DNA from: a virus
DNA length: 64,000 nucleotides
Virus record (IMG/VR): IMGVR_UViG_3300020048_003650
Location: 32,001 to 96,000 of that record
Strand: one strand, 5' to 3'
Both the position numbers and the translations under genes were made by a program. Of the stretch, positions 25,146 through 49,269 are shown piece after piece. Each line of letters opens with the position of its first letter. The stretch's first letter is position 1. The notes below the pieces were generated by a model that worked only from the letters and a program-made list of their open reading frames with translations, did no database searches and was not told the DNA's origin.

Positions 25146-26351
25146 ATGAGTAGCATATTACATTGTTCCTTCTGTGGAAAACATAAAAACGCCGTTAAAA
25201 AATTAATCGTCGGTGACAGTTCAGCAATCTGTAATGATTGTATTGAACTGTGCACGGATTTATTACTATCCGATACTGAATTAGATGTTCAGTCTGAATC
25301 TAAACGTGTTAGTTTATTTCCAGATGATATCAAACGTTTTTTAGACGAATACATTATCGGCCAAGATCGTGCCAAAAAAATAATAAGTGTCGCCGTTGCC
25401 AATCACTATAAAAGAATAAACAATAAAAGCGATAATATCACTGTTCAGAAAAGTAACGTGTTGATAGTTGGTCCAACCGGTAGCGGAAAAACTCTGCTTG
25501 CTAAAACTGTTGCCAAATATCTAGATGTTCCATTTGTAATAGCAGATGCAACTAGTTTAACCGAGGCTGGTTACGTTGGCGACGATGTAGAAAGTATGAT
25601 TACTAGATTGTTGGCGGCGGCCGGCGGCGATGTTGAACGTGCTGAACGAGGAATTGTTTTTATTGACGAAGTTGATAAAATTGCTAGAAAGAGTGAAAGT
25701 GCTAGTATTACTAGAGATGTCTCTGGCGAGGGTGTTCAACAGGCACTACTAAAATTAGTAGAAGGCACTGTGTGTAGAATATCACAAGACGGTAAAAGAA
25801 AAAATCCCAGTCAATCAATGATAGAAATAGATACTACTAATATCTTGTTTATCGCTGGTGGTGCATTTGTCGGATTAAGACAGTTAGTAGAAAATAGAGT
25901 CAGCGGAAATAGTATTGGATTTTCTGCATCAGTTGCAAATAAAGATAACAACATTGAGTATCTTGATCAATTGATGCCGGACGATCTTACTAAGTTCGGT
26001 ATGATACCAGAATTTACTGGCAGATTTACCAGCATTGTTAATATTACTGAACTAGATAAAGAGCAGTTAATACGAATCCTTACCGATGTTAAAAGTAACT
26101 TTATAGATCAATACACTTATCTATTTGGACTAGATGATATCGAATTACGTTTTGAAGCGGAGGCTATTGAAAAAATCGCAGAAAATTGTCTTAGATTAAA
26201 AACTGGCGCAAGGGGTCTACATAATGAAATGGAACGAGTTCTGATGCCTCATATGTATGAGATACAATCTTACATAAAAAACAACACTCGTCTGATAAAT
26301 ATTACCAGTGAACTAGTAGATAGTCCCACAGTATTACTGGAGGATAAATGA
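25146..26351 (+). CDS. clpX: ATP-dependent Clp protease ATPase
   Basis: CSFC/CNDC zinc finger, GPTGSGKT, FIDEVDK, RDVSGEGVQQALLK, IGF loop, GARGL. Confidence 0.97.
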   Translation: MSSILHCSFCGKHKNAVKKLIVGDSSAICNDCIELCTDLLLSDTELDVQSESKRVSLFPDDIKRFLDEYIIGQDRAKKIISVAVANHYKRINNKSDNITVQKSNVLIVGPTGSGKTLLAKTVAKYLDVPFVIADATSLTEAGYVGDDVESMITRLLAAAGGDVERAERGIVFIDEVDKIARKSESASITRDVSGEGVQQALLKLVEGTVCRISQDGKRKNPSQSMIEIDTTNILFIAGGAFVGLRQLVENRVSGNSIGFSASVANKDNNIEYLDQLMPDDLTKFGMIPEFTGRFTSIVNITELDKEQLIRILTDVKSNFIDQYTYLFGLDDIELRFEAEAIEKIAENCLRLKTGARGLHNEMERVLMPHMYEIQSYIKNNTRLINITSELVDSPTVLLEDK

Positions 26352-37878: not shown

Positions 37879-38400
37879 ATGACTTCAAAACTTACCTCAA
37901 CAGACCCACGTATCGTTGATTTATTTAAATCGTATCATCGCCGAGTTAAATCTCGTCCACAGTTATTTAATAATAGTAACTCAATGATTACCGTTGGATT
38001 ATCGGCCGATTTGTTAGATTACGCTAATGCCGCGGCTGGTCATAGTGGCTTTGCTGCTAGTGCACGCCCAGTTGGTATTCGAGTGACCGTGAGTGATAGT
38101 ACTAAATCTCTTAAAGATATCTTTAGTTCGTGTGAATCACTGGCCGAGTTTATTAACTCAAGTGAGTGCAATGCCGCGGAGTATATTGCTAGAATTAGAG
38201 ATCGTGATTCTAAAGTATCTAATAAACCAGGCAAGAACGCAATTACAATCGATATCCGTCCAATCAAAGATGCTTTCTACGATTTAGGGTACAACTTTGA
38301 TCTAATTCAAAAACTCAAGAATACGTACGGCACTGACACCGTTAAACGTGACTGGGACAATCTTCAGGTTACAGAATTTCAACTTCGCTACGCTGTCTAA
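37879..38400 (+). CDS. Hypothetical protein at start of MTase island
   Basis: Promoter TTGACA(37808)-N17-TATACT. Confidence 0.65.
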   Translation: MTSKLTSTDPRIVDLFKSYHRRVKSRPQLFNNSNSMITVGLSADLLDYANAAAGHSGFAASARPVGIRVTVSDSTKSLKDIFSSCESLAEFINSSECNAAEYIARIRDRDSKVSNKPGKNAITIDIRPIKDAFYDLGYNFDLIQKLKNTYGTDTVKRDWDNLQVTEFQLRYAV

Positions 38401-38413
38401 CACAGGTACTGTC

Positions 38414-39370
38414 GTGATAAATAATTCGGTCGTCAACGTACTTGACACACTCAAAAAAGAAGATTACAATATTCTAATAGTTAATGCCCTTAACGGAGCG
38501 TTTCCTATTAGAGTTCGTAAAAAATATCCAAAAGCTAGAATTATCTGCGCCGAGATATTTCCATACTTCAAATCTCATCTACTCAAGTTGGGATTTGAAG
38601 TCATTGATTTTTCAATATTGACCGAAGATATGATAAAACGATTTAATGTGACTTTAGGTAATCCACCGTTTCAGGCAATGAAGTCTGATGGAGAGCGCAG
38701 TGATCAGGCTAGTAACCTGTGGAGTAAATTTTGGGTCAAGTCATTGGATATTACCAATGACAATGGAATTGTTGCTTTGGTTAGTCCAACTAGTTGGATT
38801 TCTCCTAGTTCAGAGATACGAGGCAAATGGTCTCGTAACGGCAAATCTAGATTGTGGGAGGTATTCGATCAATACGGTAGCTACGCTAATGTGACAGATG
38901 TAAAAAAACATTTTGATGGTGTGGGTTCTACATTTGGATATGTGATCGTAGATAAATCTAAAGATACTGGATTGATATTTTCAGACGGCGTGTCAACTAA
39001 ATTAGGATTTCGCGCTCATGGAGAATATGACCGAGTTGAATTGGAACTAGATCGAATAGAGAATCTTGATAAACATTTTAAGATTAATCAAGTTAATTCC
39101 CCCGGTCTAAGAGTTAGCTTTCCGTTAACCAGAACATTAACCGTTAACAGCGTAGAGATATTAACAGGACAATCGTCGCCGACTACCGGCTCTGATAAAG
39201 ATGGTTTGTATCTGTACATTCACGTGAATAATCTCACTGAAGCGGAATTGGTAAAAAACCGAATTATTGATTGTTTGGATATTTTAAATAAACTCTGCAA
39301 GTACAGTGGATTTATTAATATCCAAACAGTAAAAATGATTAAATTCTTCGATAGTGTTGTAAAAAGTTGA
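38414..39370 (+). CDS. Amino-MTase catalytic/TRD protein with degenerate SAM-binding motif (start uncertain)
   Basis: YNILIVNALNG, IICAE, LGNPPF, LWSKF, GIVALVSP.SW, HF.GVGS. Confidence 0.7.
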   Translation: MINNSVVNVLDTLKKEDYNILIVNALNGAFPIRVRKKYPKARIICAEIFPYFKSHLLKLGFEVIDFSILTEDMIKRFNVTLGNPPFQAMKSDGERSDQASNLWSKFWVKSLDITNDNGIVALVSPTSWISPSSEIRGKWSRNGKSRLWEVFDQYGSYANVTDVKKHFDGVGSTFGYVIVDKSKDTGLIFSDGVSTKLGFRAHGEYDRVELELDRIENLDKHFKINQVNSPGLRVSFPLTRTLTVNSVEILTGQSSPTTGSDKDGLYLYIHVNNLTEAELVKNRIIDCLDILNKLCKYSGFINIQTVKMIKFFDSVVKS

Positions 39371-39426: not shown

Positions 39427-41907
39427 ATGAGTTTAAAGATTATTGGTGACAGAGCCAAGATACACTGGTTGAGTTCAACTAAATCAGTAACCTTGACCAA
39501 AGATCAGGGCGTACTCTATATCACTCAAGATGGTAAACTTGGTCAGGCAACCGTAGAGAGTTATGCCGGTCTGACTCCGGCCGAGGCATTCGTGCGTCGC
39601 TATAATGGCATGAAGTCTGCCATGAATGGTAACTTTATTGCCGATGATCTCGTGGTGATTGATAAGACGTATGGTGAGAATCATGATTATGATGATGGTG
39701 TTCGTCTACTGATTAATAAATTAAACAAGATCAATCTGATTGATTTTCGAGCTAACGTTCTATCTCAACAGACCGAAAATTCAAACAGCGAGGCACTAAT
39801 AGATTACAAGTCATCGTCGCATAGAGACGATGTTATCAATTGTATCAAACAATATCTAGGAATTAACACATACTACAATACTCACACACCATTTCAACCA
39901 CGTTACGGCCAACAGTGGGCCGTCGACGGTATTGTTAGCGGTCTCGCTCAGTATGATCGTGTGTTGTTTGCTGGCTACACGGGCGTTGGCAAGAGCAAGA
40001 TTGCCTTAGAGGCAATTCATCAGTACTATCCTGGTGGCGCTGTGATTCTTATTACCACACCTATTACCGAGACCATTACGTCATTCAAGGACGCCGTCGA
40101 TGATACAAGATTTGGCAATTCTCCAACCAGAGAGACTGTGATATATTCGACCGATAATATGCCGAGTGTCAAGAATATCAAAAACTCTGTTGCCAATGGC
40201 AATATTGTTATTGTTATTGCCACAGTACAGGATATTCGCTATCAAGACAGTTCTTCAATTACCACACCGAATAAAAAACTTCGTACAAAATACACGTCAC
40301 TGTGTCAGATAGTTGATCTATGGATTCGTGATGAGTATCATAAAGAGTACGGCGGAACAGTTACTCAGGAGGTATTCAAACATATCAAGACCAGTAAAAA
40401 ACTAGACTTGACCGCCACGCCGTATTCGGTCATTGATGAATATGATAGTGAACAGGTAATCTCACGTACACTATTGTGGGCAGTGGCAAATCGTGCTAAT
40501 ACCGGCGTGCCAAATTTTGGTATTGACTGTTTAGCCGGCTTGTTGCCAAAAAACATGAGTAAGTGGGGCGACCTATTCAGCGAGAGCGAGGGCTTTCACA
40601 GTCATAAATTGGTCGAACAATGCAGTTCAACAGGCGAGTTCGTAAACTTCGGAATCATCGAGGATATGATCGAGCGTTCATACTGTATGAATACCGTGCC
40701 TCGTAAAAAGAACGTGTTCAGCATCGGTAATGATGCTGAGTTGAGTCTTGTCGCCCGTGAAGTTGGATTGTGGATTATGCCAGAGGGAGCAAATGGCATT
40801 TCGGCATCAGACTACATTGTGTCACTGGCAGACAAATTGAATCGTTGTGGCACAATTAATAAACACGTTAAAGTTACAACGGCATATGAGATTGACGGTC
40901 TGCGTAAACAGTTAACTGTGGAAGAATATGTTAATTCAATCAAAGACCATCGTGTCTTGATTATCCTTACTCACGGTAAGTTCAAAACCGGAACTGATAT
41001 ACCCTGTTTAGGTCACATTGTATTACTAGACAAGATTAGTAATATAGCGGAGTTTGAACAAACTGTTGGTAGAATCATGCGTGTCTATCCAACTAAGGAC
41101 TACACTAAAATGTATGTGTACAGTCCAGGTGTCACCGTCAAGGAAGTAGTTACTGAGTTAGCCCATCAGAATACTAAATTGTCCACGGACGAGACCCGTA
41201 GTGAATTGGATTTCTTAAGTTGTTTTCCAATTAGCGAGTATGATGGTCTGTCTATCCAGTCTCTCGATCCAGTTACACTGTTTGAAGAGTTTAAAGAAAA
41301 ACTTAGACTCAAGAGTGCAATTGCCAACTTTAAATTGCCCAGTGAAATTCGTTCAATGATTGAGAATAATTCAGATATCGCGGACGAATTATCTTTGCTG
41401 TCTAAGAAAAATGGTAAGCGCGATGGCCTAAGTTCGGACCTTACAGAAGATAATAACTCTGAGGTTTTTGGCAACCGTAATAAAAAAAATGGCAACACGA
41501 AAAAATCAACACCAGTCAACCAAGATCAAAAAACTATCAATAATATCATTAACGGACTGGAAGAAATTTGGATAAACGTTCCGCCATTTGCCATTATTAC
41601 AGATAGTGACGACATCGTTGATGTGTTACAATGTGAACCGCTAATTGAAATGTTCGGTCATGATCATATCTATTCAGTCGTCGATGTGATGAATAATTAT
41701 CCAGACTTTAAGAAACGACTGCAACTTAGATTGAACGTGTTCTTGACTGCATTCCGTGATCTACCGCCGGAACAGTGTTACGATTCAGTATTTAAAAACT
41801 GTGATAAAAAAATGAAACAGGGATTGGTATTCACCCCGTTTAGTTTAATTGATGAATTGTTGGATAAATTGCCTATGGACAGTTACAACGCTAAATATGG
41901 ATACTAA
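39427..41907 (+). CDS. SF2 helicase / restriction-like subunit
   Basis: GYTGVGKS, DEYH, LTATP, TGTDIP, QTVGRIMR; C-terminal GLVFTP; promoter TTGACA(39367)-N17-TATACT. Confidence 0.8.
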   Translation: MSLKIIGDRAKIHWLSSTKSVTLTKDQGVLYITQDGKLGQATVESYAGLTPAEAFVRRYNGMKSAMNGNFIADDLVVIDKTYGENHDYDDGVRLLINKLNKINLIDFRANVLSQQTENSNSEALIDYKSSSHRDDVINCIKQYLGINTYYNTHTPFQPRYGQQWAVDGIVSGLAQYDRVLFAGYTGVGKSKIALEAIHQYYPGGAVILITTPITETITSFKDAVDDTRFGNSPTRETVIYSTDNMPSVKNIKNSVANGNIVIVIATVQDIRYQDSSSITTPNKKLRTKYTSLCQIVDLWIRDEYHKEYGGTVTQEVFKHIKTSKKLDLTATPYSVIDEYDSEQVISRTLLWAVANRANTGVPNFGIDCLAGLLPKNMSKWGDLFSESEGFHSHKLVEQCSSTGEFVNFGIIEDMIERSYCMNTVPRKKNVFSIGNDAELSLVAREVGLWIMPEGANGISASDYIVSLADKLNRCGTINKHVKVTTAYEIDGLRKQLTVEEYVNSIKDHRVLIILTHGKFKTGTDIPCLGHIVLLDKISNIAEFEQTVGRIMRVYPTKDYTKMYVYSPGVTVKEVVTELAHQNTKLSTDETRSELDFLSCFPISEYDGLSIQSLDPVTLFEEFKEKLRLKSAIANFKLPSEIRSMIENNSDIADELSLLSKKNGKRDGLSSDLTEDNNSEVFGNRNKKNGNTKKSTPVNQDQKTINNIINGLEEIWINVPPFAIITDSDDIVDVLQCEPLIEMFGHDHIYSVVDVMNNYPDFKKRLQLRLNVFLTAFRDLPPEQCYDSVFKNCDKKMKQGLVFTPFSLIDELLDKLPMDSYNAKYGY

Positions 41908-42934
41908 GATGATTGACAAGTTAAGCGATAAAGACTACAATATCTTAGTGATAAATGCACTTAACGGCACATTTGCAATTAAACTCAGACAGCGGTATCC
42001 ACGTGCCAGAATTATCTGTGCCGAGATGTTCTCTTACTACGGAGAACACCTGACTAAACTGGGTTTTGAAGTTATCGACTACAAAGACTTGGACAAGAGT
42101 ATGAGATTTGATGTAATAGCCGGAAATCCTCCTTATCTTAAAGGAAAATGGATAGAGTTTTTAAAACGTTCTATCGAACTTTCCAATAAACACGTTCTGA
42201 TGATTTCTCCAGACGGAACGAATAATTTTTCCACTCGCTCTGATAAATTGATCAGTTTTCTTAAGGAAAATGGAATTCAATCAAAAGTTGAATGCACTGA
42301 TTCTTTCCCTACTGTTCTTAGCGGCAAGATTGTCACTTATTTTTTGGATAAAAGTAAACCTGGAAATTCAGATATCTTTGACCCAGTTGATGATCTTGGA
42401 CGACTGTTAAAACAAGTTATCCCGAATTCCAGAAAAAGTTTTCGGGGCGGCTATGAATTTATGGAACCAAAAGTAAAAGGAATTAAGCGTAACAAGAACA
42501 AGGACGTTCTGCCAAGTAATGATTCACAATCGTCAGAATATTCTCAACGAGTAATTGTGGGTGTCACCAGAAAAGGAATCATCGAACGATATTTTGCTGA
42601 ACAATCTAGCGAGAGTCAGGCTACGGAACTAGGGTTTGTCATAAATCGCTCATTCGGACAAGGGTCCAATAAAGACGTTTATTTGGTAGATTCACAGAAT
42701 ACACAATTTACCAATAATGTCATTTGGTTCGAGGCATATCCTGGAGAGACTGTGGAATCATTCTTATCAGTTTTTGGTAGTAATCTTTACGGCGAATTAC
42801 TTACTCGTTTACGTAATGGTTCCATGGATATTCGAGCAACTCATCTTCAGGCATTGCCATGTCCGCCGCTAACTCGTGTGTATTCTGAACAAGAAGTCCA
42901 CAATTTTGTTAAAAATCAACAAAAATATGGCTAA
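41897..42934 (+). CDS. Amino-MTase catalytic/TRD protein with degenerate SAM-binding motif
   Basis: YNILVINALNG, IICAE, FDVIAGNPPY; paralog of 38414. Confidence 0.72.
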   Translation: MDTKMIDKLSDKDYNILVINALNGTFAIKLRQRYPRARIICAEMFSYYGEHLTKLGFEVIDYKDLDKSMRFDVIAGNPPYLKGKWIEFLKRSIELSNKHVLMISPDGTNNFSTRSDKLISFLKENGIQSKVECTDSFPTVLSGKIVTYFLDKSKPGNSDIFDPVDDLGRLLKQVIPNSRKSFRGGYEFMEPKVKGIKRNKNKDVLPSNDSQSSEYSQRVIVGVTRKGIIERYFAEQSSESQATELGFVINRSFGQGSNKDVYLVDSQNTQFTNNVIWFEAYPGETVESFLSVFGSNLYGELLTRLRNGSMDIRATHLQALPCPPLTRVYSEQEVHNFVKNQQKYG

Positions 42935-42985
42935 AGCCATACAAAATCACTTGACACCGATCAACTATTAGAGTACAATAGTCAC

Positions 42986-43516
42986 ATGAACATTGAAACT
43001 ATTATCAAACATTTACGTGAACGTGAATACATGTCGGGCGTTGACCGTGACAAAACTCGTGTAAAAGCGACCGGCGAAGTCTACACTCCAACTCCTCTTG
43101 TACAAGAGATCCTCCATCAAATACCACAAGATCAATTTCAGGATCCCACTAAGACATTCTTAGACCCGACCTGTGGTGACGGTCAGTTCTTGAGTGAAAT
43201 CATTATCAAGAAGATCGAATCTGGTTCAACATACGAACAGGCACTCTCAACTACCTATGGCGTTGATTTAATGCCAGATAACTGCCGTGAGTGTATCAGG
43301 CGATTGTACGGCGCCCTGGGTGAGCCTGTTATTGAAACCCTAGAAAATGGAGATATCCCCCTGGAGTGGCAGCGTGATGGCGTCATCGCGGTATTCAGGG
43401 TGAACGGCACAATCTGTAACATTGTCTGTGCAGACGGACTTAAATATGACTACAGTTTTGGTGAATTGCCTGAGCCAGAGGTGTTTGGCAATTCGCTATT
43501 CGAAATAGGAGCATGA
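42986..43516 (+). CDS. Stand-alone SAM-binding half of an N6-adenine MTase
   Basis: GEVYTP (X), FLDPTCGDG (I), GVDL (II), CADGL (III); no NPPY. Confidence 0.78.
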   Translation: MNIETIIKHLREREYMSGVDRDKTRVKATGEVYTPTPLVQEILHQIPQDQFQDPTKTFLDPTCGDGQFLSEIIIKKIESGSTYEQALSTTYGVDLMPDNCRECIRRLYGALGEPVIETLENGDIPLEWQRDGVIAVFRVNGTICNIVCADGLKYDYSFGELPEPEVFGNSLFEIGA

Positions 43517-44535
43517 ATTCATTACTAAACTACATTGGTCACAAGTCAAAAAATATGAATAATTTTTACGTTCTAAAACGTGATGTGCTATCAATGAACA
43601 AGATCAATGAACTAGTTGACCTTGTTTATATCGATCCTCCATTTAATTTGAGTCGAAGATTTGAAATGGAAGGTGGTAGCGGATTTGATGATTATTGGAA
43701 AAATGATGATGAATACTTAGATTGGTATGCGTCTATTATCACTGGATGTTATAATGTCCTGGGTAAGAACGGGACCATCTATTGTCATAATAACTTTATA
43801 AATAACGCATTGGTTCTTTCGAGAGTGTCGGAAAAAATTAGAAAATCATTCGATACCAATATTTCTTGGAAACGTAGTCACCCTCACAATAACATCAAAA
43901 ATGGTTGGGGTAATATTACAGACAGTATTATTGTTTTTAAAAAGGGAAAACCATATTTTCAGCCAGAATACACTGAGTTAAATGAGAACTACAAAACTGG
44001 TAGTTTTAATAACTGTGATAGTCGCGGAAACTATAGTTTGAGTCCTATTACAGGAGAGAAATCACGATTGGGTCATATGTACACGTTTAATGGATACACA
44101 CCCACTTATGGTTGGCGTAAGACTCTCGAGGATGTTCAAATTCTACACGAACAAAATATGATTCATTATGGAGATAATAAACCATATATGAAAAAATATT
44201 TAAACGAAAGTAAGGGTGTGCCAGTTCAAAATTTTTGGAACGATATACATCCTATCACCAGAAGTGAGAAGAATAAGCGTGAGTACCCAACACAAAAACC
44301 AACATTGTTACTGGAGCGTATTATCAGAGCTAGTTGCCCTGTAAATGGTTTGGTTTTTGACCCGTTCTGTGGTAGCGGAACTACAATGATGGCCACAGTT
44401 AATGTTGGAAATAGACGTTGTATCACAAGCGATCTAAATGATGAAGCTCTACAATTATGTAAAAATTCTCTACAACAACTATTAATATTCCCCGATATTG
44501 ACGGAGAAAATATTTGGCCTACGTCCCAGTTATGA
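43513..44535 (+). CDS. Beta-class N4/N6 DNA methyltransferase
   Basis: YIDPPF, YPTQKP..LL.RII, DPFCGSGTT; N-terminal MNSLLNYIGHKSK stub. Confidence 0.9.
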   Translation: MNSLLNYIGHKSKNMNNFYVLKRDVLSMNKINELVDLVYIDPPFNLSRRFEMEGGSGFDDYWKNDDEYLDWYASIITGCYNVLGKNGTIYCHNNFINNALVLSRVSEKIRKSFDTNISWKRSHPHNNIKNGWGNITDSIIVFKKGKPYFQPEYTELNENYKTGSFNNCDSRGNYSLSPITGEKSRLGHMYTFNGYTPTYGWRKTLEDVQILHEQNMIHYGDNKPYMKKYLNESKGVPVQNFWNDIHPITRSEKNKREYPTQKPTLLLERIIRASCPVNGLVFDPFCGSGTTMMATVNVGNRRCITSDLNDEALQLCKNSLQQLLIFPDIDGENIWPTSQL

Positions 44536-44606
44536 TACTGATAAAAATAATTTATTTTTCTTTGAAAACACTTGACAGTATTAACAGACTATAGTATAAT
44601 ATCTGA

Positions 44607-45425
44607 ATGAGATTTGATGTAATAGCCGGAAATCCTCCATTTAATATTTCTAGTGATAGCGAAAACACTATTGCTGGAACCAGTGGCAATACTACACTTT
44701 ACAAAAAGTTTATTGACATTAGTTTATCATTATCAGACACTGTGGCTATGGTGGTTCAACGTAATGGAGTCAGATATGCCGACAAAAAATCAGGCGGTGT
44801 GAGTAAATATTGTCTTGACACTACTCAGCACTGGAATTTTAACACTGGGTGGTTTATCACTAATAAGTCAGACACATCAGTAGAGAACTGTTCTAAGAAT
44901 CAGATTATCAAAAAAATATATTTATTAGAACAACAGTGGAATTACTCGGCCCCACTCAGCGGAAGTTATTCTAAGAATATCGATAAGAAGTTTTGGCTAA
45001 AATCCAATGGTCAAGATGTTTATGGAATAGTTGACACTCCAACGAAGGATTTCGACGAATGTCGATACGGATATTTTGAATCACCGTATCGTAGTGGTTC
45101 ACAACTGATATTCAAGGGATTGGAAAGTATCAACAGTTATGTGGTGACTGATGAGTTTACCAAGGCAGGCAGTACGGCTGTATTGTTTTTTGACACAATT
45201 GAACAGGCTCATTTGGCAAAGAAATTTATTCTTAACAATCTTGTGATTAAATATTTAAAATCAATAATTCATGAAAAGACACTGGGTATGGTATTTAGAT
45301 ATCTACGAAAGTTTGATTTGAATCAAATAAAGACTGGTTATGAATATCCCGTGGAATGGAATCTAAGTGAACAAGACATTGAAAAAATAGAAAACAATCA
45401 ATCAAAGTTATCCAAAATTACTTGA
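44607..45425 (+). CDS. Stand-alone catalytic/TRD half of an amino-MTase
   Basis: Begins MRFDVIAGNPPF; LYKKFI; no motif I; promoter TTGACA(44572)-N17-TATAAT(44595). Confidence 0.72.
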   Translation: MRFDVIAGNPPFNISSDSENTIAGTSGNTTLYKKFIDISLSLSDTVAMVVQRNGVRYADKKSGGVSKYCLDTTQHWNFNTGWFITNKSDTSVENCSKNQIIKKIYLLEQQWNYSAPLSGSYSKNIDKKFWLKSNGQDVYGIVDTPTKDFDECRYGYFESPYRSGSQLIFKGLESINSYVVTDEFTKAGSTAVLFFDTIEQAHLAKKFILNNLVIKYLKSIIHEKTLGMVFRYLRKFDLNQIKTGYEYPVEWNLSEQDIEKIENNQSKLSKIT

Positions 45426-45540
45426 CACCGATCAACTATCATAGTACAATGTCTGTGCGAACGGACTTAAATATGACTACAGTTTTGGCGAATTGCCAGA
45501 ATCAGAGATCATTGGAAATGGTCTGTTTGAAATCGGATAA
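45422..45540 (+). pseudogene. Deletion remnant of a 42986 paralog
   Basis: Near-identical promoter to 42951 fused to VCANGLKYDYSFGELPESEIIGNGLFEIG*. Confidence 0.85.
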
Positions 45541-45594
45541 TCCTAGTTTTACTTAGATAAATACTCTATCTTTACTGGATTAATCGAGGTCAAA

Positions 45595-47064
45595 ATGAAA
45601 ATAACAGAAGTTATACAAGAGTCGGAATCAAAATTAAAATCAAGAGTTAAAAGAGCGATTGATAAACTAGATGATTCTGATGCGGAACAGATTCAGACTC
45701 TAAATCACGTAAAAAATGTTATTTATGACAGTGTATTGCAAAAAACATTTAATGAAAGTGACATCCAGTCTAGATGTCGTCCTATTGCGTACGAATGGTT
45801 CAAGGCTGCGTTAGAACGGATCGGTGTTCCTCTCGAAGATAAGGTATATCTGATAAAATTGATGGGAGACGAAAGATATTTAATTCCTGAAGAAATATAT
45901 CAGAAAAATACCAATGGCAACTTGTTAAATCACGTAAGCGACAAGATAAGAACAAACTCGGCGTTCAAGGAATTGGCTAGCCCGTTGTGGAAATATAAAA
46001 TAGGTGGCCAGGGCGGAATGGGACCTGGTGAGTTGTTTATGTCGCTTTTTTCAAAAAACGGCAAGGAAGGAGAAGGCAAAAAAGGAGGAGATGTCACAGT
46101 CGGAAGTTGGAAAATAGAACTGAAGCAGGGAGGAGTCGTTCCGCCCGGTGACACCAAAAATACAGGATTAGTTGATAAGTTAAACAAAAATCTATTGGAT
46201 ATTGCAAAAAAAGAAAACTTTTTAGATAGATTAGATTTAAAATCGTCTGCTGGAAAAGATAATCCCAACAATTTAAGTTCTGGATGGATTCCTCAGTTTT
46301 TTAAAACATACACTGAACTTCACGATGAGTCATCATCTAAAAAAATACTTACTAAATATCTAACGGATTTGTATGGAAGTTCGGCACGTGCATATGCCGA
46401 TTTGACTTTTGATAACTTAGGTAAACCCGGAGCAGAAAGAGTATTAGCTCCGATGATTTTAGATATGTATAAGGATTCCCACGAGTGGGATAGTATTTGT
46501 TTTGTTGATGAAAACTTTAAATTCATTAACCTGGTTACCTTTGAAAATATACCAAATGATCTTAAGTTTTCACTGAAACTGAAAAGAGGAGGAGATACTA
46601 ATGCTGTTGCCGACGGTTACATGGTTGTCGGTTTTAATAATGACAAAAAACAATCTTCAACTAAGAATAACAAAAAAATAGACAATAAATCAACTATACA
46701 AACATCTAAGAAAAATGACGGTGATGTAAAAAACAAAAACATACCATCTGACAATAAAAAGATTCAACCTCCAGTTCCAGAAAAAACCGCCAAACAACAG
46801 GCAAAAGATCAGGTCAGAGATTCTAAAATTAATGATATGATCAATCTTATCAAAACTGAACCTTCAAAACCATTATCGGTTGCGATTAAGAAAACTATTG
46901 GTATGAATCCTACCATAAATCAACTTGAAATAATAGGTGATGTTATTGATGACATGGAATCCGGAGTCTCTGTCGATCAAATTATCGCCGACCGGTCCGG
47001 ACCAGAAAATTTTTATGAATCATCAATGCAGTTAATGGGAATAAAACGTCTACTCCAATTTTAA
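45595..47064 (+). CDS. Late protein with PD-(D/E)xK nuclease-like core
   Basis: GPGELF...GDV...IELK; GATAAATA at 45556; N-terminus MKITEVIQE. Confidence 0.55.
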   Translation: MKITEVIQESESKLKSRVKRAIDKLDDSDAEQIQTLNHVKNVIYDSVLQKTFNESDIQSRCRPIAYEWFKAALERIGVPLEDKVYLIKLMGDERYLIPEEIYQKNTNGNLLNHVSDKIRTNSAFKELASPLWKYKIGGQGGMGPGELFMSLFSKNGKEGEGKKGGDVTVGSWKIELKQGGVVPPGDTKNTGLVDKLNKNLLDIAKKENFLDRLDLKSSAGKDNPNNLSSGWIPQFFKTYTELHDESSSKKILTKYLTDLYGSSARAYADLTFDNLGKPGAERVLAPMILDMYKDSHEWDSICFVDENFKFINLVTFENIPNDLKFSLKLKRGGDTNAVADGYMVVGFNNDKKQSSTKNNKKIDNKSTIQTSKKNDGDVKNKNIPSDNKKIQPPVPEKTAKQQAKDQVRDSKINDMINLIKTEPSKPLSVAIKKTIGMNPTINQLEIIGDVIDDMESGVSVDQIIADRSGPENFYESSMQLMGIKRLLQF

Positions 47065-47128
47065 AATATCTGACTATTTTGGATAATATTATCTTGACTT
47101 TCATGTGCCTATAACATATAATAGATAC

Positions 47129-48061
47129 ATGTCAAAATATAAAAAACCTCTGTTTATGTGGGCCGGCGGCAAAACTAAAATGATCAAGTTTTATGATCAG
47201 AGTCGAATAATGCCAACTACAGTCAACCGATACATTGAACCATTCTTTGGTGGCGGAGCAATGTACATCGAAGTGATGGAAAGATTTAATCCAAAGATAT
47301 CAATTATCAACGATATAAATTCCAGTATAGTTAAAATTTATCAATCTATCAAAACTGATTATGATAATTTTATTATTCATCTGGATCGATTATGTGTTAA
47401 ATATCTAGCCATGAACACCGTTGATCGTAAAACGTTTTATTACGAGGTTAGAAATTTACACGCGTATCATTATCAAAATTGGAGTAGTACTCAAGAATCC
47501 GCTACTCTTTACTTTTTGATGAAAACTGGATTCAACGGAATATGGCAATGTAATCAAAATACAAATGGTAGATTTGGAACACCTAGTGGCCTATTGAATC
47601 AGAAAGACAGAGTCTATGATGTGGACGTAATCAAATATTGGAATAATATTCTTCAATCATCCATTATTTTAAATCAAGATTGCAAATCTGTTTTATCACA
47701 ATATCCAGACGTAGACGATAGTTTTTATTTTTTAGACCCTCCATATAGAGGGAGTTTTACTCATTACAGTCAAACTTTCACAGATCAAGACCAAACAGAT
47801 TTGTTAACCTTCGCCAAATCTGTCTCGTCTAATAGTAGGATATTATTGTGTAATGATGACGTTGGAGATAATTTTTTTCAGAATCAAATAGGTTCTCTTC
47901 AAATAGAGTCATACAATCTAAAACATACAGCGGGCCGTAGAAAAAAAACTGATGATGGATTTATCGCAAAGTCGGTAACGGAAATAGTCATTCATAACTC
48001 ATCGAACATAAAATCCACATCGGAATCTTTTGGAAACGACCTATTCGAAATCGGCGCATGA
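47129..48061 (+). CDS. Dam-like (D12 class) adenine methyltransferase
   Basis: PLFMWAGGK, EPFFGGGA, INDIN, GFNG, FLDPPY, TEIVI.N. Confidence 0.92.
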   Translation: MSKYKKPLFMWAGGKTKMIKFYDQSRIMPTTVNRYIEPFFGGGAMYIEVMERFNPKISIINDINSSIVKIYQSIKTDYDNFIIHLDRLCVKYLAMNTVDRKTFYYEVRNLHAYHYQNWSSTQESATLYFLMKTGFNGIWQCNQNTNGRFGTPSGLLNQKDRVYDVDVIKYWNNILQSSIILNQDCKSVLSQYPDVDDSFYFLDPPYRGSFTHYSQTFTDQDQTDLLTFAKSVSSNSRILLCNDDVGDNFFQNQIGSLQIESYNLKHTAGRRKKTDDGFIAKSVTEIVIHNSSNIKSTSESFGNDLFEIGA

Positions 48062-48099
48062 ATTCATTACTGAACTACATTGGTCATAAATCAAAATGA
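48058..48099 (+). pseudogene. 13-codon dam-like stub MNSLLNYIGHKSK
   Basis: Overlaps both neighbours by ATGA. Confidence 0.75.
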
Positions 48100-49001
48100 A
48101 ACATGATTACAGATTAGGCGATTGTTTTGAACATCTCGCCTCTATACAGGACAACTCGGTCGATCTATGTCTAACCGACCCGCCATACTTTATAGATGGA
48201 TTGGGCGATGAATGGGACACTGATAAAATTAAAGCCAGTATTTCGACCAACGCCACGTCTACCATCAAGTCCTTGCCAGTTGGTATGAAGTTTGACCCAT
48301 CTCAAGGTCCACGTTTTCAAGAATTCATGGAACGAGTCTCCACGGAAGTATTTAGAGTTCTTAAACCTGGCGGATTTTATGTTGCTTTCAGTCAAGCGAG
48401 ACTGTATCATCGACTGGGCATTGCCGTTGAAAATTGCGGATTTGAAATTAGAGACATGTTAGGCTGGACTTATCAGGGACAAGCCAAAGCATTTAGTCAA
48501 GATCATATCATTCGTAAGCAAAAAAACTTAACCGAAGACGAAAAGACCTCACTGATAAAAGAGTTAGATGGCTGGAAAACTCCACAATTAAAACCCTGTA
48601 TCGAACCGATGACTTTGGCACAAAAACCCATAGAGGGTAAGTTTATCGATAATTGGCAAAAGTGGGGTGTGGGGTTAATTAACACTAATCAGCGTTGGGA
48701 CGACAGTTTTCCTGGAAATATTATCGGGTGTAATAAGCCCACCAAAAAAGAAAAGGGAGATTACAATAATCATGTGAGTGTTAAGCCTCTAGAGTTATGT
48801 GAGCATTTAATAAAACTTTTAACCAGAGAAAACGCCATCGTTCTGGATCCATTTTTAGGTTCAGGTACTACGCTAATAGCCGCTGAAAATACTCAACGCA
48901 GATGTATTGGATTTGAATTATCATCTGAGTACTTTGATATTATACAACGTAGGCTAAGTACGGCGACCCATTATAATAAAATTTTAGGATTTGATAGTTG
49001 A
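48096..49001 (+). CDS. Beta-class N4/N6 DNA methyltransferase
   Basis: LTDPPY, H.SVKP..L..LI, DPFLGSGTT, IGFE. Confidence 0.92.
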   Translation: MKHDYRLGDCFEHLASIQDNSVDLCLTDPPYFIDGLGDEWDTDKIKASISTNATSTIKSLPVGMKFDPSQGPRFQEFMERVSTEVFRVLKPGGFYVAFSQARLYHRLGIAVENCGFEIRDMLGWTYQGQAKAFSQDHIIRKQKNLTEDEKTSLIKELDGWKTPQLKPCIEPMTLAQKPIEGKFIDNWQKWGVGLINTNQRWDDSFPGNIIGCNKPTKKEKGDYNNHVSVKPLELCEHLIKLLTRENAIVLDPFLGSGTTLIAAENTQRRCIGFELSSEYFDIIQRRLSTATHYNKILGFDS

Positions 49002-49205
49002 ATGAACTCACTTCTCAACTACATTGGTCACAAGTCAAAAATCGTCAACCAAATCAAGATGTATTTGCCTGAGACTGTTATTGAACTGGCTAAAAAATAT
49101 CGAAAATGGGCAAGCGCTGGCAACAAAACCGTAGAGCGTGGCTCTAAAATCAATCGAGAAGTCTTAGTACTATCATATCGGTCGCCAATAATTCAAATCG
49201 TTTAA
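49002..49205 (+). pseudogene. Internally deleted Dam-like MTase
   Basis: Dam-type N-terminus LLNYIGHKSKIVNQI..YLP joined to C-terminal EVLVLSY; catalytic motifs missing. Confidence 0.7.
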
Positions 49206-49269
49206 TACCAATTACACTTGACAATAAATCACAACTATGATACAATGTAGTTATTGTGAGGTAAATTCT

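Follow-up and report, generated by a model that had tools for sequence, protein, structure and literature searches.

The window was a 64,000-nucleotide stretch of a 104.5-kb virus record. Its features are collected in Table 1, and the region from 38.3 to 49.2 kb would represent a hyperplastic methylase island of a phage of roughly the 350-kb type.

Table 1. Positions of genes, repeats and promoters in the methylase island (numbering of the window)
Feature	Position	Strand	Remarks
SF2 helicase (826 aa)	39427..41907	+	Pfam ResIII/Helicase_C; C-terminus with gamma-MTase motif X
M1, gamma-type NPPY/TRD methylase half	41897..42934	+	Eco57I-like match; ORF readable from 41849
32-nt exact repeat, copy 1 (MRFDVIAGNPP, motif IV strand)	42101..42132	+	100% identical to 44607-44638
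Early sigma70-type promoter TTGACA-17-TACAAT	42951..42979	+	-10 ends 6 nt before ATG 42986
SAM-binding half of split gamma MTase (176 aa), allele A	42986..43516	+	Limited to N6_Mtase motifs X and I-III
Tail-coding part of joint 1	43484..43516	+	FGNSLFEIGA, stop within ATGA
Dam start 1 (MNSLLNYIGHKSK)	43513..43551	+	In-frame fusion to beta1; same fusion ORF on Logan contig (P0403)
Beta1, beta-class N6/N4 MTase	43555..44535	+	Native start 43555; Pfam 4.7e-38
Consensus promoter (12/12)	44572..44600	+	-10 ends 6 nt before ATG 44607
M1b, catalytic/TRD half of second split gamma MTase (272 aa)	44607..45425	+	First 32 nt identical to M1
Second copy of the 42951 promoter	45422..45450	+	Repeat match
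Start-less remnant of second SAM-half gene (allele B)	45446..45540	+	Ends IIGNGLFEIG and stop
489-aa phage-only protein, possibly nuclease-like	45595..47064	+	No Pfam or PHROG family
Promoter	47094..47122	+	-10 ends 6 nt before ATG 47129
Dam318, D12-class adenine MTase, tail SFGNDLFEIGA	47129..48061	+	Pfam 6.6e-30 (D12 Dam, ORF 47105-48061)
Dam start 2	48058..48099	+	Free 13-codon ORF, ATGA overlap at each end
Beta2, second beta-class MTase	48096..49001	+	Pfam 7.3e-35; relatives in other contexts
Dam start 3 and internally deleted dam (67 aa)	49002..49205	+	ATG abuts beta2 stop (TGAATG)
Next early promoter, closing the island	49218..49246	+	Promoter match

Methylase genes of the island

The SF2 helicase was collinear with residues 125-632 of relatives of 1156-1247 aa, in which the helicase is fused to the next gene, and M1 aligned to residues ~851-1005 of these helicase-methylase fusions. 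The first tail-bearing gene, at 42986, was the small SAM-half. In 80 viral loci this gene was located downstream of a helicase-NPPY/TRD protein; the preceding gene there encoded either a fused helicase-MTase or a gamma NPPY protein. Its family gave 2167 matches, with a median length of 171 aa among the 150 best listed. Allele A was globular to approximately residue 155, followed by a linker and FGNSLFEIGA. In the predicted structure, pLDDT was above 90 at residues 40-150 and below 50 at residues 159-174. The modelled complex of the SAM-half with M1b scored 0.87, compared with 0.00 for the best of three controls, although this pass may reflect mere likeness to solved single-chain gamma MTases. 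In the benchmark of the score, 58 of 80 solved complexes attained the same mark, as did 2 of 110 mismatched pairs. At least 89% of the predicted contacts were common to the runs, and the partner pLDDT was at least 68.

Pfam N6_N4_Mtase was assigned to 43513-44535, the ORF that includes beta1, and to 48096-49001. The two beta methylases showed only 34% identity over 74 aa. The remnant at 45446-45540 retained 31 codons without a start and was 82-89% identical to 43419-43510. The GNGLFEIG end that had been noticed at 45514-45540 was the end of this remnant, and it was identical to the tail of the full-length relative P0413. In the case of the 489-aa protein, restriction-enzyme leads were only weak (0.77-0.78). 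Its putative homology to the ~418-aa gene located upstream of dam in relatives amounted to only 24% identity across 110 aa (pairwise E of 0.004). The segment 42933-42983, which holds the promoter at 42951, was 86% identical to 45404-45453, which holds the promoter at 45422-45450. The first gene of both operons appeared to be leaderless, as judged from the sequence.

The tail/dam-start joint

A joint of 68 nt was present twice, at 43484-43551 and 48029-48096, with 85% identity. The core was 91% identical between 43496-43551 and 48041-48096 (self-BLAST E 9e-16). In the joint, the 3' end of one DNA-methylase gene (ten codons) overlapped the 5' end of a dam gene (13 codons), and a third copy of the dam half was found at 49002-49040. 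In joint 1, the gene at 42986-43516 ended in FGNSLFEIGA, and its stop overlapped the ATG at 43513 as ATGA. From there, MNSLLNYIGHKSK read in frame into a beta-class MTase with its own ATG at 43555. In joint 2, the gene at 47129-48061 ended in FGNDLFEIGA, and its stop again overlapped an ATG as ATGA, here at 48058. A second ATGA, at 48096, closed the 13-codon stub and was the start of a different beta MTase. The genes on either side of the two joints were unrelated beyond the joint. These observations bore out the first-pass annotation, which had described two unrelated genes with a homologous end, their overlap with one dam-like start, and a different beta-class MTase after KSK at each. The GNxLFEIG DNA motif occurred three times in the window, where 0.03 were expected, and no further copy was found in the rest of the 104.5-kb record. 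The recurrence of the joint in front of different methylase genes was real and far above chance.

As read from the alignment of relatives, MNSLLNYIGHKSK was the unvarying 5' end of a dam gene specific to the lineage. Residues S3, L4, N6, Y7, G9, H10, K11, S12 and K13 were invariant in 10 relatives, and the near relatives P0001 and P0416 carried an intact dam with an identical start. The three copies in the island clustered together, with 3-5 differences among themselves compared with 6-13 to the relatives. They differed at 6 sites (7 changes), and all changes were synonymous, compared with 21% expected for random changes. The catalytic body (motif I, DPPY) was missing from all three. The third copy had been described as an internally deleted dam, and alignment to the intact P0001 agreed: 49002-49205 matched residues 1-26 and 270-313 of this 313-aa protein with 98% identity. 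The third copy was a recent in-frame deletion, in which 246 codons were lost at a 'TV' microhomology. It also carried D16N at a conserved site.

The joint had been proposed as a query against related phages. In 2.9 million viral contigs, the exact joint pattern had no match, and neither the stub nor the FEIGA*/MNSLL joint was present. The LNYIGHKSK pattern gave full-length dams only in the viral contigs and three bacterial or MAG matches in the genome contigs, whose sequences were not read. A metagenome scan by dam-homologue search gave only full-length or contig-truncated dams, and P0416 as a query had no match in the genome contigs. No matching paper was among the listed hits of a limited literature search.

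ATGA overlaps were located at 43513, 48058 and 48096, and a TGAATG at 48999. No SD was present upstream of 43555 or 48096. Overlapping stop and start codons together with a distal cistron without SD are the sequence features of translational coupling. The SD-less beta methylases could be reached only via the ATGA overlaps at the dam start, and therefore termination-reinitiation coupling of beta1 and beta2 through the stub was plausible. The first-pass suggestion of such coupling was supported to this extent by the overlaps, the lack of SD and the leaderless appearance of the first genes. The arrangement resembled known ATGA termination-reinitiation, in which a short ORF would relay ribosomes (Dam318 to stub to beta2 to deleted dam). 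Unlike in usual ATGA coupling, the relay ORF appeared to be a fossil of the 5' end of another gene. An RNA element at the joint was rejected, since folding z-scores of -0.6, +0.7 and +0.3 indicated neither a stable nor a common fold.

The conserved C-terminal tail

Sequence comparison showed the FGNxLFEIG end to be an old peptide, conserved at the C-termini of phage MTases, and not merely an exchange linker or cassette boundary. It was native to both tail-bearing gene families, the SAM-half and Dam318. In related phages, three methylase families unrelated to one another carried it, each time after a variable linker predicted to be disordered. The SAM-half C-termini from the 80 viral loci showed a variable linker followed by FGN[GND]LFE.. 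or xLF[DE]F... Linkers were 12-106 aa long, and 'LF' was present within the final 10 residues of 17 of 64 representatives compared with 2.3% of other windows. Phage homologues of Dam318 ended in ..IGNGLFEIG, ..GNGLFTLE or ..LRLFDIVE, whereas the cellular homologues (285 aa) ended ~20 aa earlier without the tail. In the MNSLL-dam family, the ends were ..FGNGLFTFA, ..FGNGLFEQE.. or ..EELFEFV. The identical tail SFGNDLFEIGA was present on Dam318 in P0012, P0419 and P0418, and VIGNGLFTLE on the 93%-identical P0027. SAM-half alleles were polymorphic for EIGA and EIG (P0412 versus P0413). The form with the final alanine was found on three backgrounds: SAM-half A, SAM-half B (P0412) and Dam318. The homology of the tails was due to this conserved C-terminal peptide. 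The idea that Dam318 and the remnant had exchanged tails reciprocally, argued from F/I and the presence or absence of Ala, was dropped, because the II-type tail proved, from P0412 and P0413, to belong natively to a SAM-half allele.

The tail most likely acts as a docking tag for one common partner. The bacterial beta-clamp motif is QL[SD]LF, and the [SDG]-L-F core of the tail resembled its final three residues, whereas the first two positions were G-N and not Q-L. By analogy, a sliding clamp would be the leading hypothetical partner. Sliding-clamp-binding epitopes are located at the C-termini of T4/RB69 gp43, gp55 and gp33 (PMC2988020). Like these, the tail was short, hydrophobic/acidic and located at the very C-terminus; it followed a divergent, probably unstructured linker and was common to otherwise unrelated proteins. 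Unlike the clamp epitopes, it was carried in the 104.5-kb record by methylases only, and it was absent there from any replicative polymerase or other known clamp client. PolIII alpha was absent from the record. In the 230-kb record G002, an LF tail was found only on Dam and one 329-aa ORF. A phage-encoded clamp was rejected as the partner: none of five Pfam clamp families was found in the window's record, nor any of three or four in each of eight other tail-bearing phage records (one 92% complete). The helicase-MTase module was an unlikely partner, because G002 carried a tail-bearing Dam and no such module in 230 kb. The tail was also predicted to be disordered and to lie outside the modelled SAM-half/M1b interface.

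Recombination and origin of the joints

The near relatives were seen only as protein termini and not as DNA, and we infer their co-location on contigs from the equal lengths of these contigs. Proteins with 88-100% identity differed at the borders, as seen from the termini of P0406, P0408, P0409, P0412, P0413, P0415 and P0027. Beta2 was located behind a promoter-like sequence without the stub in P0409/P0410, and another beta2-dam junction was present in P0408/P0001. P0406 was a beta1 with another 5' end. P0412 and P0413 were whole SAM-half proteins where the window has the remnant. P0415 was 97.8% identical to M1b, yet its start was MIFDVVATNPPF, and against it the 32-nt conversion of the M1b start became visible. 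Because near relatives carry other junctions at the same genes, the island was read as recombining, and the invariant gene order that would have contradicted the first-pass annotation was not observed. Integrase and resolvase families (PF00589 and PF00239) were absent from the 104.5-kb record, which covers only ~30% of a genome. A blastn search against GenBank phages gave nothing relevant, and the helicase query had no match in the viral contigs. In G009, the best available SAM-half relative (74% identity), the gene was located at the contig end, and few genes were in common.

Our preferred reading, with a probability of about 0.55, is a hyperplastic methylase island in which a joint of conserved tail and dam start was shuffled by recombination and the stub was kept for reinitiation. 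General recombination at short conserved sequences and microhomology deletions would have built and eroded the island. The joint would unite two parts, each conserved for its own reason: the dam start and the tail, the latter a putative peptide epitope that several unrelated methylases of this phage group carry after a flexible linker. The dam gene of the lineage would once have lain behind a gene with the tail and overlapped it by ATGA. Recombination inside the tail-coding homology would have carried the tail/dam-start joint to another methylase gene, and illegitimate joins in the A-run just past codon 13 would have brought two different beta-methylase genes, both without SD, to a place behind it. 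The dam start would have survived at the joints because it is a termination-reinitiation site giving access to the beta methylase for ribosomes leaving the promoter-proximal, apparently leaderless gene. Several points speak against this explanation. Two independent illegitimate joins within 1 nt would be a coincidence, which the A-run microhomology explains only partly. The lack of non-synonymous change in two stubs could mean selection on the 13-residue peptide itself, which the model does not require. In addition, the partner of the tail was not found, and the near relatives were represented by protein termini only.

The joint could also be a portable adaptor under selection, at which methylase cassettes land repeatedly; they would be swapped at this short homology without a recombinase, and the stub would couple the arriving gene. 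The start of two different beta MTases within 1 nt of the same point, the purely synonymous divergence of the stubs, the 'A*' tail form on three gene backgrounds, the different junctions in near relatives and the other contexts of each MTase in more distant phages would all fit. However, only two events were seen, both in A-run microhomology, and protein function accounts for the tail homology. No stub was present in other viral contigs or among the dams of the metagenome search, and homologues of beta1 (65-76% identity, all beginning at the equivalent Met) and of beta2 never carried it. Repetition at the joint was limited to the left border, and every arrival would still require an illegitimate join, because the right-hand border had no homology. 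We consider this possibility doubtful. A dedicated insertion site was not shown, and of the swapping at short homology proposed initially, the real joints and varying junctions stood. An extended form is similarly tentative: the tail homology would admit any tail-bearing methylase upstream, the dam start would reinitiate an SD-less gene downstream, and the tail would dock all products on one partner, e.g. the replication clamp. If true, co-circulating phages would reshuffle their methylase repertoire, an anti-restriction 'wardrobe', at one coding joint without a recombinase.

Pure decay would mean that several duplicated dam copies are being lost and that the stubs are neutral scars with a chance ATG. 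The plain in-frame deletion with D16N in the third copy, the reduction of the second SAM-half gene to 31 codons and the intact dam of a near-identical relative agree with this. Part of the cassette array proposed in the first-pass annotation was plain decay, namely the deleted dam and the deleted second SAM-half gene. As an explanation of the stubs, decay is unlikely, with 0 of 7 stub changes non-synonymous, both stubs at the precise place where a gene without SD would require a restart codon, and an intact stub-beta1 ORF in an independent assembly. This ORF, the exact 340-aa fusion (P0403) in the Logan assembly, also meant that junction 1 was not an artefact of one assembly. The collinear repeats R1-R2-R3 and the exact repeat of 32 nt look like allelic variants of one module and would suggest an assembly artefact, in which strain variants were concatenated at repeats. 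This is highly improbable, as the joint copies were just 85-91% identical, unique sequence (beta1 and the 489-aa gene) bridged the units, and both the Dam318 tail and an identical stub-beta1 ORF were seen again on independent JGI, Logan and ENA contigs. The joint is best understood as a common tail of proteins combined with remaining dam starts that would serve anew in coupled translation, within a methylase island scrambled by recombination.

Among known processes, modular shuffling driven by recombination at short conserved sequences (PeSL-type) comes closest. There, short repeats flank non-essential genes, and general recombination inserts, deletes and swaps modules between close relatives (2010, PMC2839356; PMC4122927). 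Similarly, repeats were located at the module borders of the island (two copies each of the 68-nt joint, the promoter and the 32-nt motif-IV box, and three of the dam half of the joint), no site-specific recombinase was found, and the island was studded with near-identical strong sigma70-type early promoters. Unlike in PeSL-type shuffling, the repeat was coding sequence, a protein tail and a gene start, and not a promoter-terminator cassette; the promoter repeats were beside the joint, which had no stem-loop. The island resembled integron arrays in its tandem promoter-distal exchangeable genes of one functional class, but it had no integrase, no attC-like folded site and no repeat unit flanking each gene.

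The methylase repertoire of a phage decides which restriction systems it escapes, and the rapid rebuilding of repertoires is only partly understood. This locus provides a concrete testable case, in which the same methylase genes have different borders in close relatives. One coding border serves the protein as a common tail, expression as a restart codon, and probably recombination. The FGNxLFE-type tail on three unrelated methylase families and on the widespread SAM-half subunit points to a common docking partner, which may organize methylation around one hub.

The joint and its expression

The repeat search of the window, self-BLAST, the raw sequence, and Pfam agreed that all elements listed in the first-pass annotation were present. 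The 68-nt joint, in which a methylase tail overlaps the first 13 codons of dam (the stub), was 85% identical between its two copies. In the third member of the family, the match was confined to the dam half. In self-BLAST, a 56-nt stretch of the joint matched at 91% (E 9e-16); the dam-start pairs gave 90% and 85%. The degenerate DNA motif for GNxLFEIG occurred 3 times in the window against 0.03 expected, and no further occurrence was found elsewhere in the entire record. In the raw sequence, the ATG of MNSLLNYIGHKSK was overlapped via ATGA by both FGNSLFEIGA-stop and FGNDLFEIGA-stop. Stub 1 continued in frame into a beta-class MTase (beta1) with its own ATG at 43555, and stub 2 closed in a second ATGA at 48096, where another, different beta MTase (beta2) begins. 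Pfam gave two N6_N4 MTases, a D12 Dam at 47105-48061 (Dam318), and an N-terminal N6_Mtase fragment at 42986-43516 (the SAM-half gene). The genes paired at the joint showed no relationship beyond the joint itself. The joint is genuine and has biological meaning.

Coordinates of the features in and around the methylase island
Feature	Position	Remarks
ClpX-like AAA+ protein	25146-26351	
NPPY-type gamma-MTase-like ORF	38348-39370	upstream of helicase
Helicase and next ORF	39427-42934	helicase of 826 aa, 39427-41907
Unit 1	41897-43516	helicase precedes; fused to unit in relatives
M1	41897-42934	
32-nt perfect repeat	42101-42132; 44607-44638	encodes MRFDVIAGNPP
Strong promoters in island	42951, 44572, 45422, 47094, 49218	
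68-nt repeat	43484-43551; 48029-48096; 48973-49040	
beta1	43555-44535	C-terminal motif at 44490-44535
Unit 2	44607-45540	intact NPPF/TRD gene (272 aa); SAM-half cut to last 31 codons
M1b	44607-45425	
SAM-half remnant	45446-45540	
489-aa phage-only protein	45595-47064	between methylase genes
Dam318	47129-48061	
beta2	48096-49001	

The window covers bases 32001-96000 of a 104,535-bp IMG/VR virus record. Its completeness was ~30% by CheckV, which implied a phage size of roughly 350 kb. The whole record contained 24 near-identical sigma70-type early promoters, TTGACA-N17-TA(C/T)AAT. An ATG lay 6 nt past the -10 box at 42986, 44607, and 47129, three methylase genes with near-consensus promoters, and this spacing suggested that the mRNAs of these first genes are probably leaderless. 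No SD was present in the sequence before beta1 and beta2. Access to beta1 was only via the dam-start ATGA, directly as a fusion. Access to beta2 was only via the dam-start ATGA and a 13-codon relay, and TGAATG then led into the deleted dam. Since this was the only access, translational coupling through the stub, as the first-pass annotation had proposed, would be the simplest reading of the sequence. No RNA structure was found at the joint.

C-terminal tails of the methylases

The tail peptide read ...EVFGNSLFEIGA. The small proteins related to the 176-aa SAM-half gene formed a very large family with 2167 matches (median 171 aa among the best 150 of 2167), and they comprised only the SAM-binding half of a gamma MTase (motifs X, I-III). 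At 80 viral loci, the SAM-half gene stood directly after a gamma NPPY/TRD protein (350-410 aa) or a helicase-MTase fusion (1155-1247 aa). The globular part of the family closed with ..NIVCADGLxYDYxFG, followed by a linker of 12-106 residues (acidic or K/P-rich) and a terminal peptide FGN[GND]LFE.. or xLF[DE]F.., and 'LF' was about twelve times commoner in the final ten residues than elsewhere in these proteins. The AlphaFold model of the SAM-half was confident to about residue 155, and residues 159-174 were disordered. Phage homologues of Dam318 with 75-79% identity ended in EVIGNGLFEIG, EIIGNGLFEIG, or EVIGNGLIEIG. Remoter members ended in ..LRLFDIVE or ..MRLFEIV, and cellular 285-aa homologues terminated about 20 residues sooner. 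The tails of the MNSLL-dam family were ..SFGNGLFTFA, ..VFGNGLFEQE.., ..EELFEFV, and ..PILFETG... Thus, two unrelated genes ended alike because the C-terminal epitope was common to the methylases of this phage group. As judged from these sequences, the tail is a protein feature native to methylase families and not merely a linker. The FEIGA homology on unrelated genes reported earlier was real. It did not stand as a cassette linker alone, since such tails were native to the SAM-half, Dam318, and MNSLL-dam families.

T4 gp43, gp55, and gp33 have hydrophobic/acidic C-termini behind divergent linkers (PMC2988020). The methylase tails were alike in lying at the C-terminus behind variable linkers, and by this analogy we read the tail as a putative docking tag. 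None of five Pfam clamp families was found in the window's record, and each of a further eight phage records with such tails, of which one was 92% complete, was without the three or four clamp families tested there. Eight of the nine tail-bearing records G000-G004 and G006-G009 extrapolated to ~350 kb by CheckV, a set that omits G005 (the record behind L087), also ~350 kb by CheckV. No Pfam-recognisable sliding clamp was found in these nine, including the 92%-complete record. In the window's record, no protein beyond those methylases bore the tail.

The beta1 family (homologues P0133-P0168) had a conserved motif, ..(F/L)xxxDGxD(I/L)W, at the extreme C-terminus or close to it, another type of methylase tail. 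The ClpX-like protein had an N-terminal zinc-finger match, and a ClpXP of the phage might also recognise C-terminal tags, methylase tails included.

Loss and conversion in the island

The 67-aa ORF at 49002 was 98% identical at both ends to the 313-aa relative P0001, an intact dam, and 246 codons were gone in frame at a 'TV' microhomology. This alignment indicated that the third dam-start copy belongs to a dam with an internal deletion. Across ten relatives, the dam family was nearly invariant over its first 15 residues. The three dam starts of the window differed at six sites (seven changes), every one synonymous, although chance would make just 21% of changes here synonymous. The copies had 3-5 differences in 33 nt among themselves and 6-13 versus any relative. 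The dam starts therefore diverged with the peptide under selection. Either the copies belonged to functional dam alleles, or the stub has an importance of its own. Several dam alleles occurred in near relatives (P0001, P0416, P0417).

The island held two copies of a module consisting of an NPPY/TRD half, a promoter, and a SAM-half. The SAM-half remnant of unit 2 lay immediately behind the promoter without a start codon. Near relatives carried an intact unit 2. Both P0415, which has 272 aa and is 97.8% identical, and P0412, a full-length allele of the SAM-half, came from contigs of 7597 bp. P0413 terminated exactly as the remnant. The start of M1b, the 272-aa gene, was MIFDVVATNPPF in P0415 and MRFDVIAGNPPF in the window, where its first 32 nt perfectly matched 42101-42132 in M1. 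Because P0415 differed here, the M1b start of the window was recently gene-converted to the M1 version. The conversion may have matched M1b to the sole intact SAM-half remaining in this genome.

When the SAM-half was modelled in complex with the 272-aa protein, the score was 0.87, and the best-scoring of three controls reached 0.00. Among solved complexes, 58 of 80 attained this mark, as did 2 of 110 mismatched pairs. Contact agreement between runs was 89% or more, and the partner pLDDT was at least 68. The SAM-half motif-I strand (residues 56-61) was modelled against partner residues 3-8, and the MRFDVIAGNPP repeat was the strand that paired with it. Since the interface was the sheet of an ordinary one-chain gamma MTase, the pass may reflect only that likeness. 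Tail residues 167-176 were not among the named interface residues.

The helicase C-terminus carried gamma-MTase motif X 'GLVFTPFSLIDELL', and an 11-nt overlap in different frames connected it to the next ORF (NPPY/TRD). In relatives, both formed one 1156-1247-aa protein with NPPY near residues 865-965. The break reflects either a frameshift, a genuine split, or an error in sequencing. Another NPPY-type ORF upstream ended in ..KFFDSVVKS and aligned with residues ~823-1005 of the fused relatives. The 489-aa protein had no Pfam or PHROG family. By eye, its GD..(9)..ELK stretch resembled PD-(D/E)xK, and the Atlas gave weak restriction-endonuclease leads (0.77-0.78).

Junctions in relatives and origin of the joint

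The borders differed among near relatives, which are known here from proteins alone. The Dam318 tail was SFGNDLFEIGA in P0012, P0419, and P0418 and VIGNGLFTLE in the 93%-identical P0027, and both EIGA-stop and EIG-stop occurred among SAM-half alleles. In a 95.7% relative, beta2 had in-frame ..LLVYNYS upstream of its M, a TATAAT-like stretch, in place of the stub. In P0408, beta2 was 100% identical over residues 1-291 and then had 11 different residues, VFLLERPLNNT (window 48966-49001). From the equal size (5736 bp) of the source contigs of P0408 and P0001, we infer that it lies beside intact dam, and its beta2/dam border has the form of a fresh breakpoint. In an 88% relative, beta1 began MASLQLDVDLIY.., and remoter homologues of each methylase had quite different gene neighbourhoods. 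These comparisons were evidence for reshuffling of the island in the population, and the invariant junction order that was to count against a landing site was not observed.

The reshuffled junctions were consistent with an adaptor or landing site for MTase genes that is reusable and under selection, as first proposed. However, a dedicated site is unlikely. No stub or FEIGA-stop/MNSLL joint was found elsewhere in the viral collection searched, and the metagenome scan by dam-homologue search gave only full-length or contig-truncated dams. Genome contigs gave three matches to the LNYIGHKSK pattern. The stub was missing from all 65-76% beta1 homologues and 67% beta2 homologues. No recombinase was found in the record, and the right border of the joint had no homology. 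Both right borders lay in a run TCAAAA(A) at codons 12-14, which meant microhomology to the A-rich stretch before many start codons. In addition, simple loss accounted for part of the array (deleted dam, deleted SAM-half). It is also rather improbable that the stubs are neutral scars. An assembly artefact deserves hardly any weight, since the stub-beta1 ORF and the tails recurred on contigs of independent origin (JGI, Logan, and ENA).

We favour shuffling and decay by recombination in the methylase island, with the repeated piece persisting as both halves are useful (probability about 0.55). The joint would be kept since its tail half may serve as a docking tail and its dam-start half may supply a restart codon.
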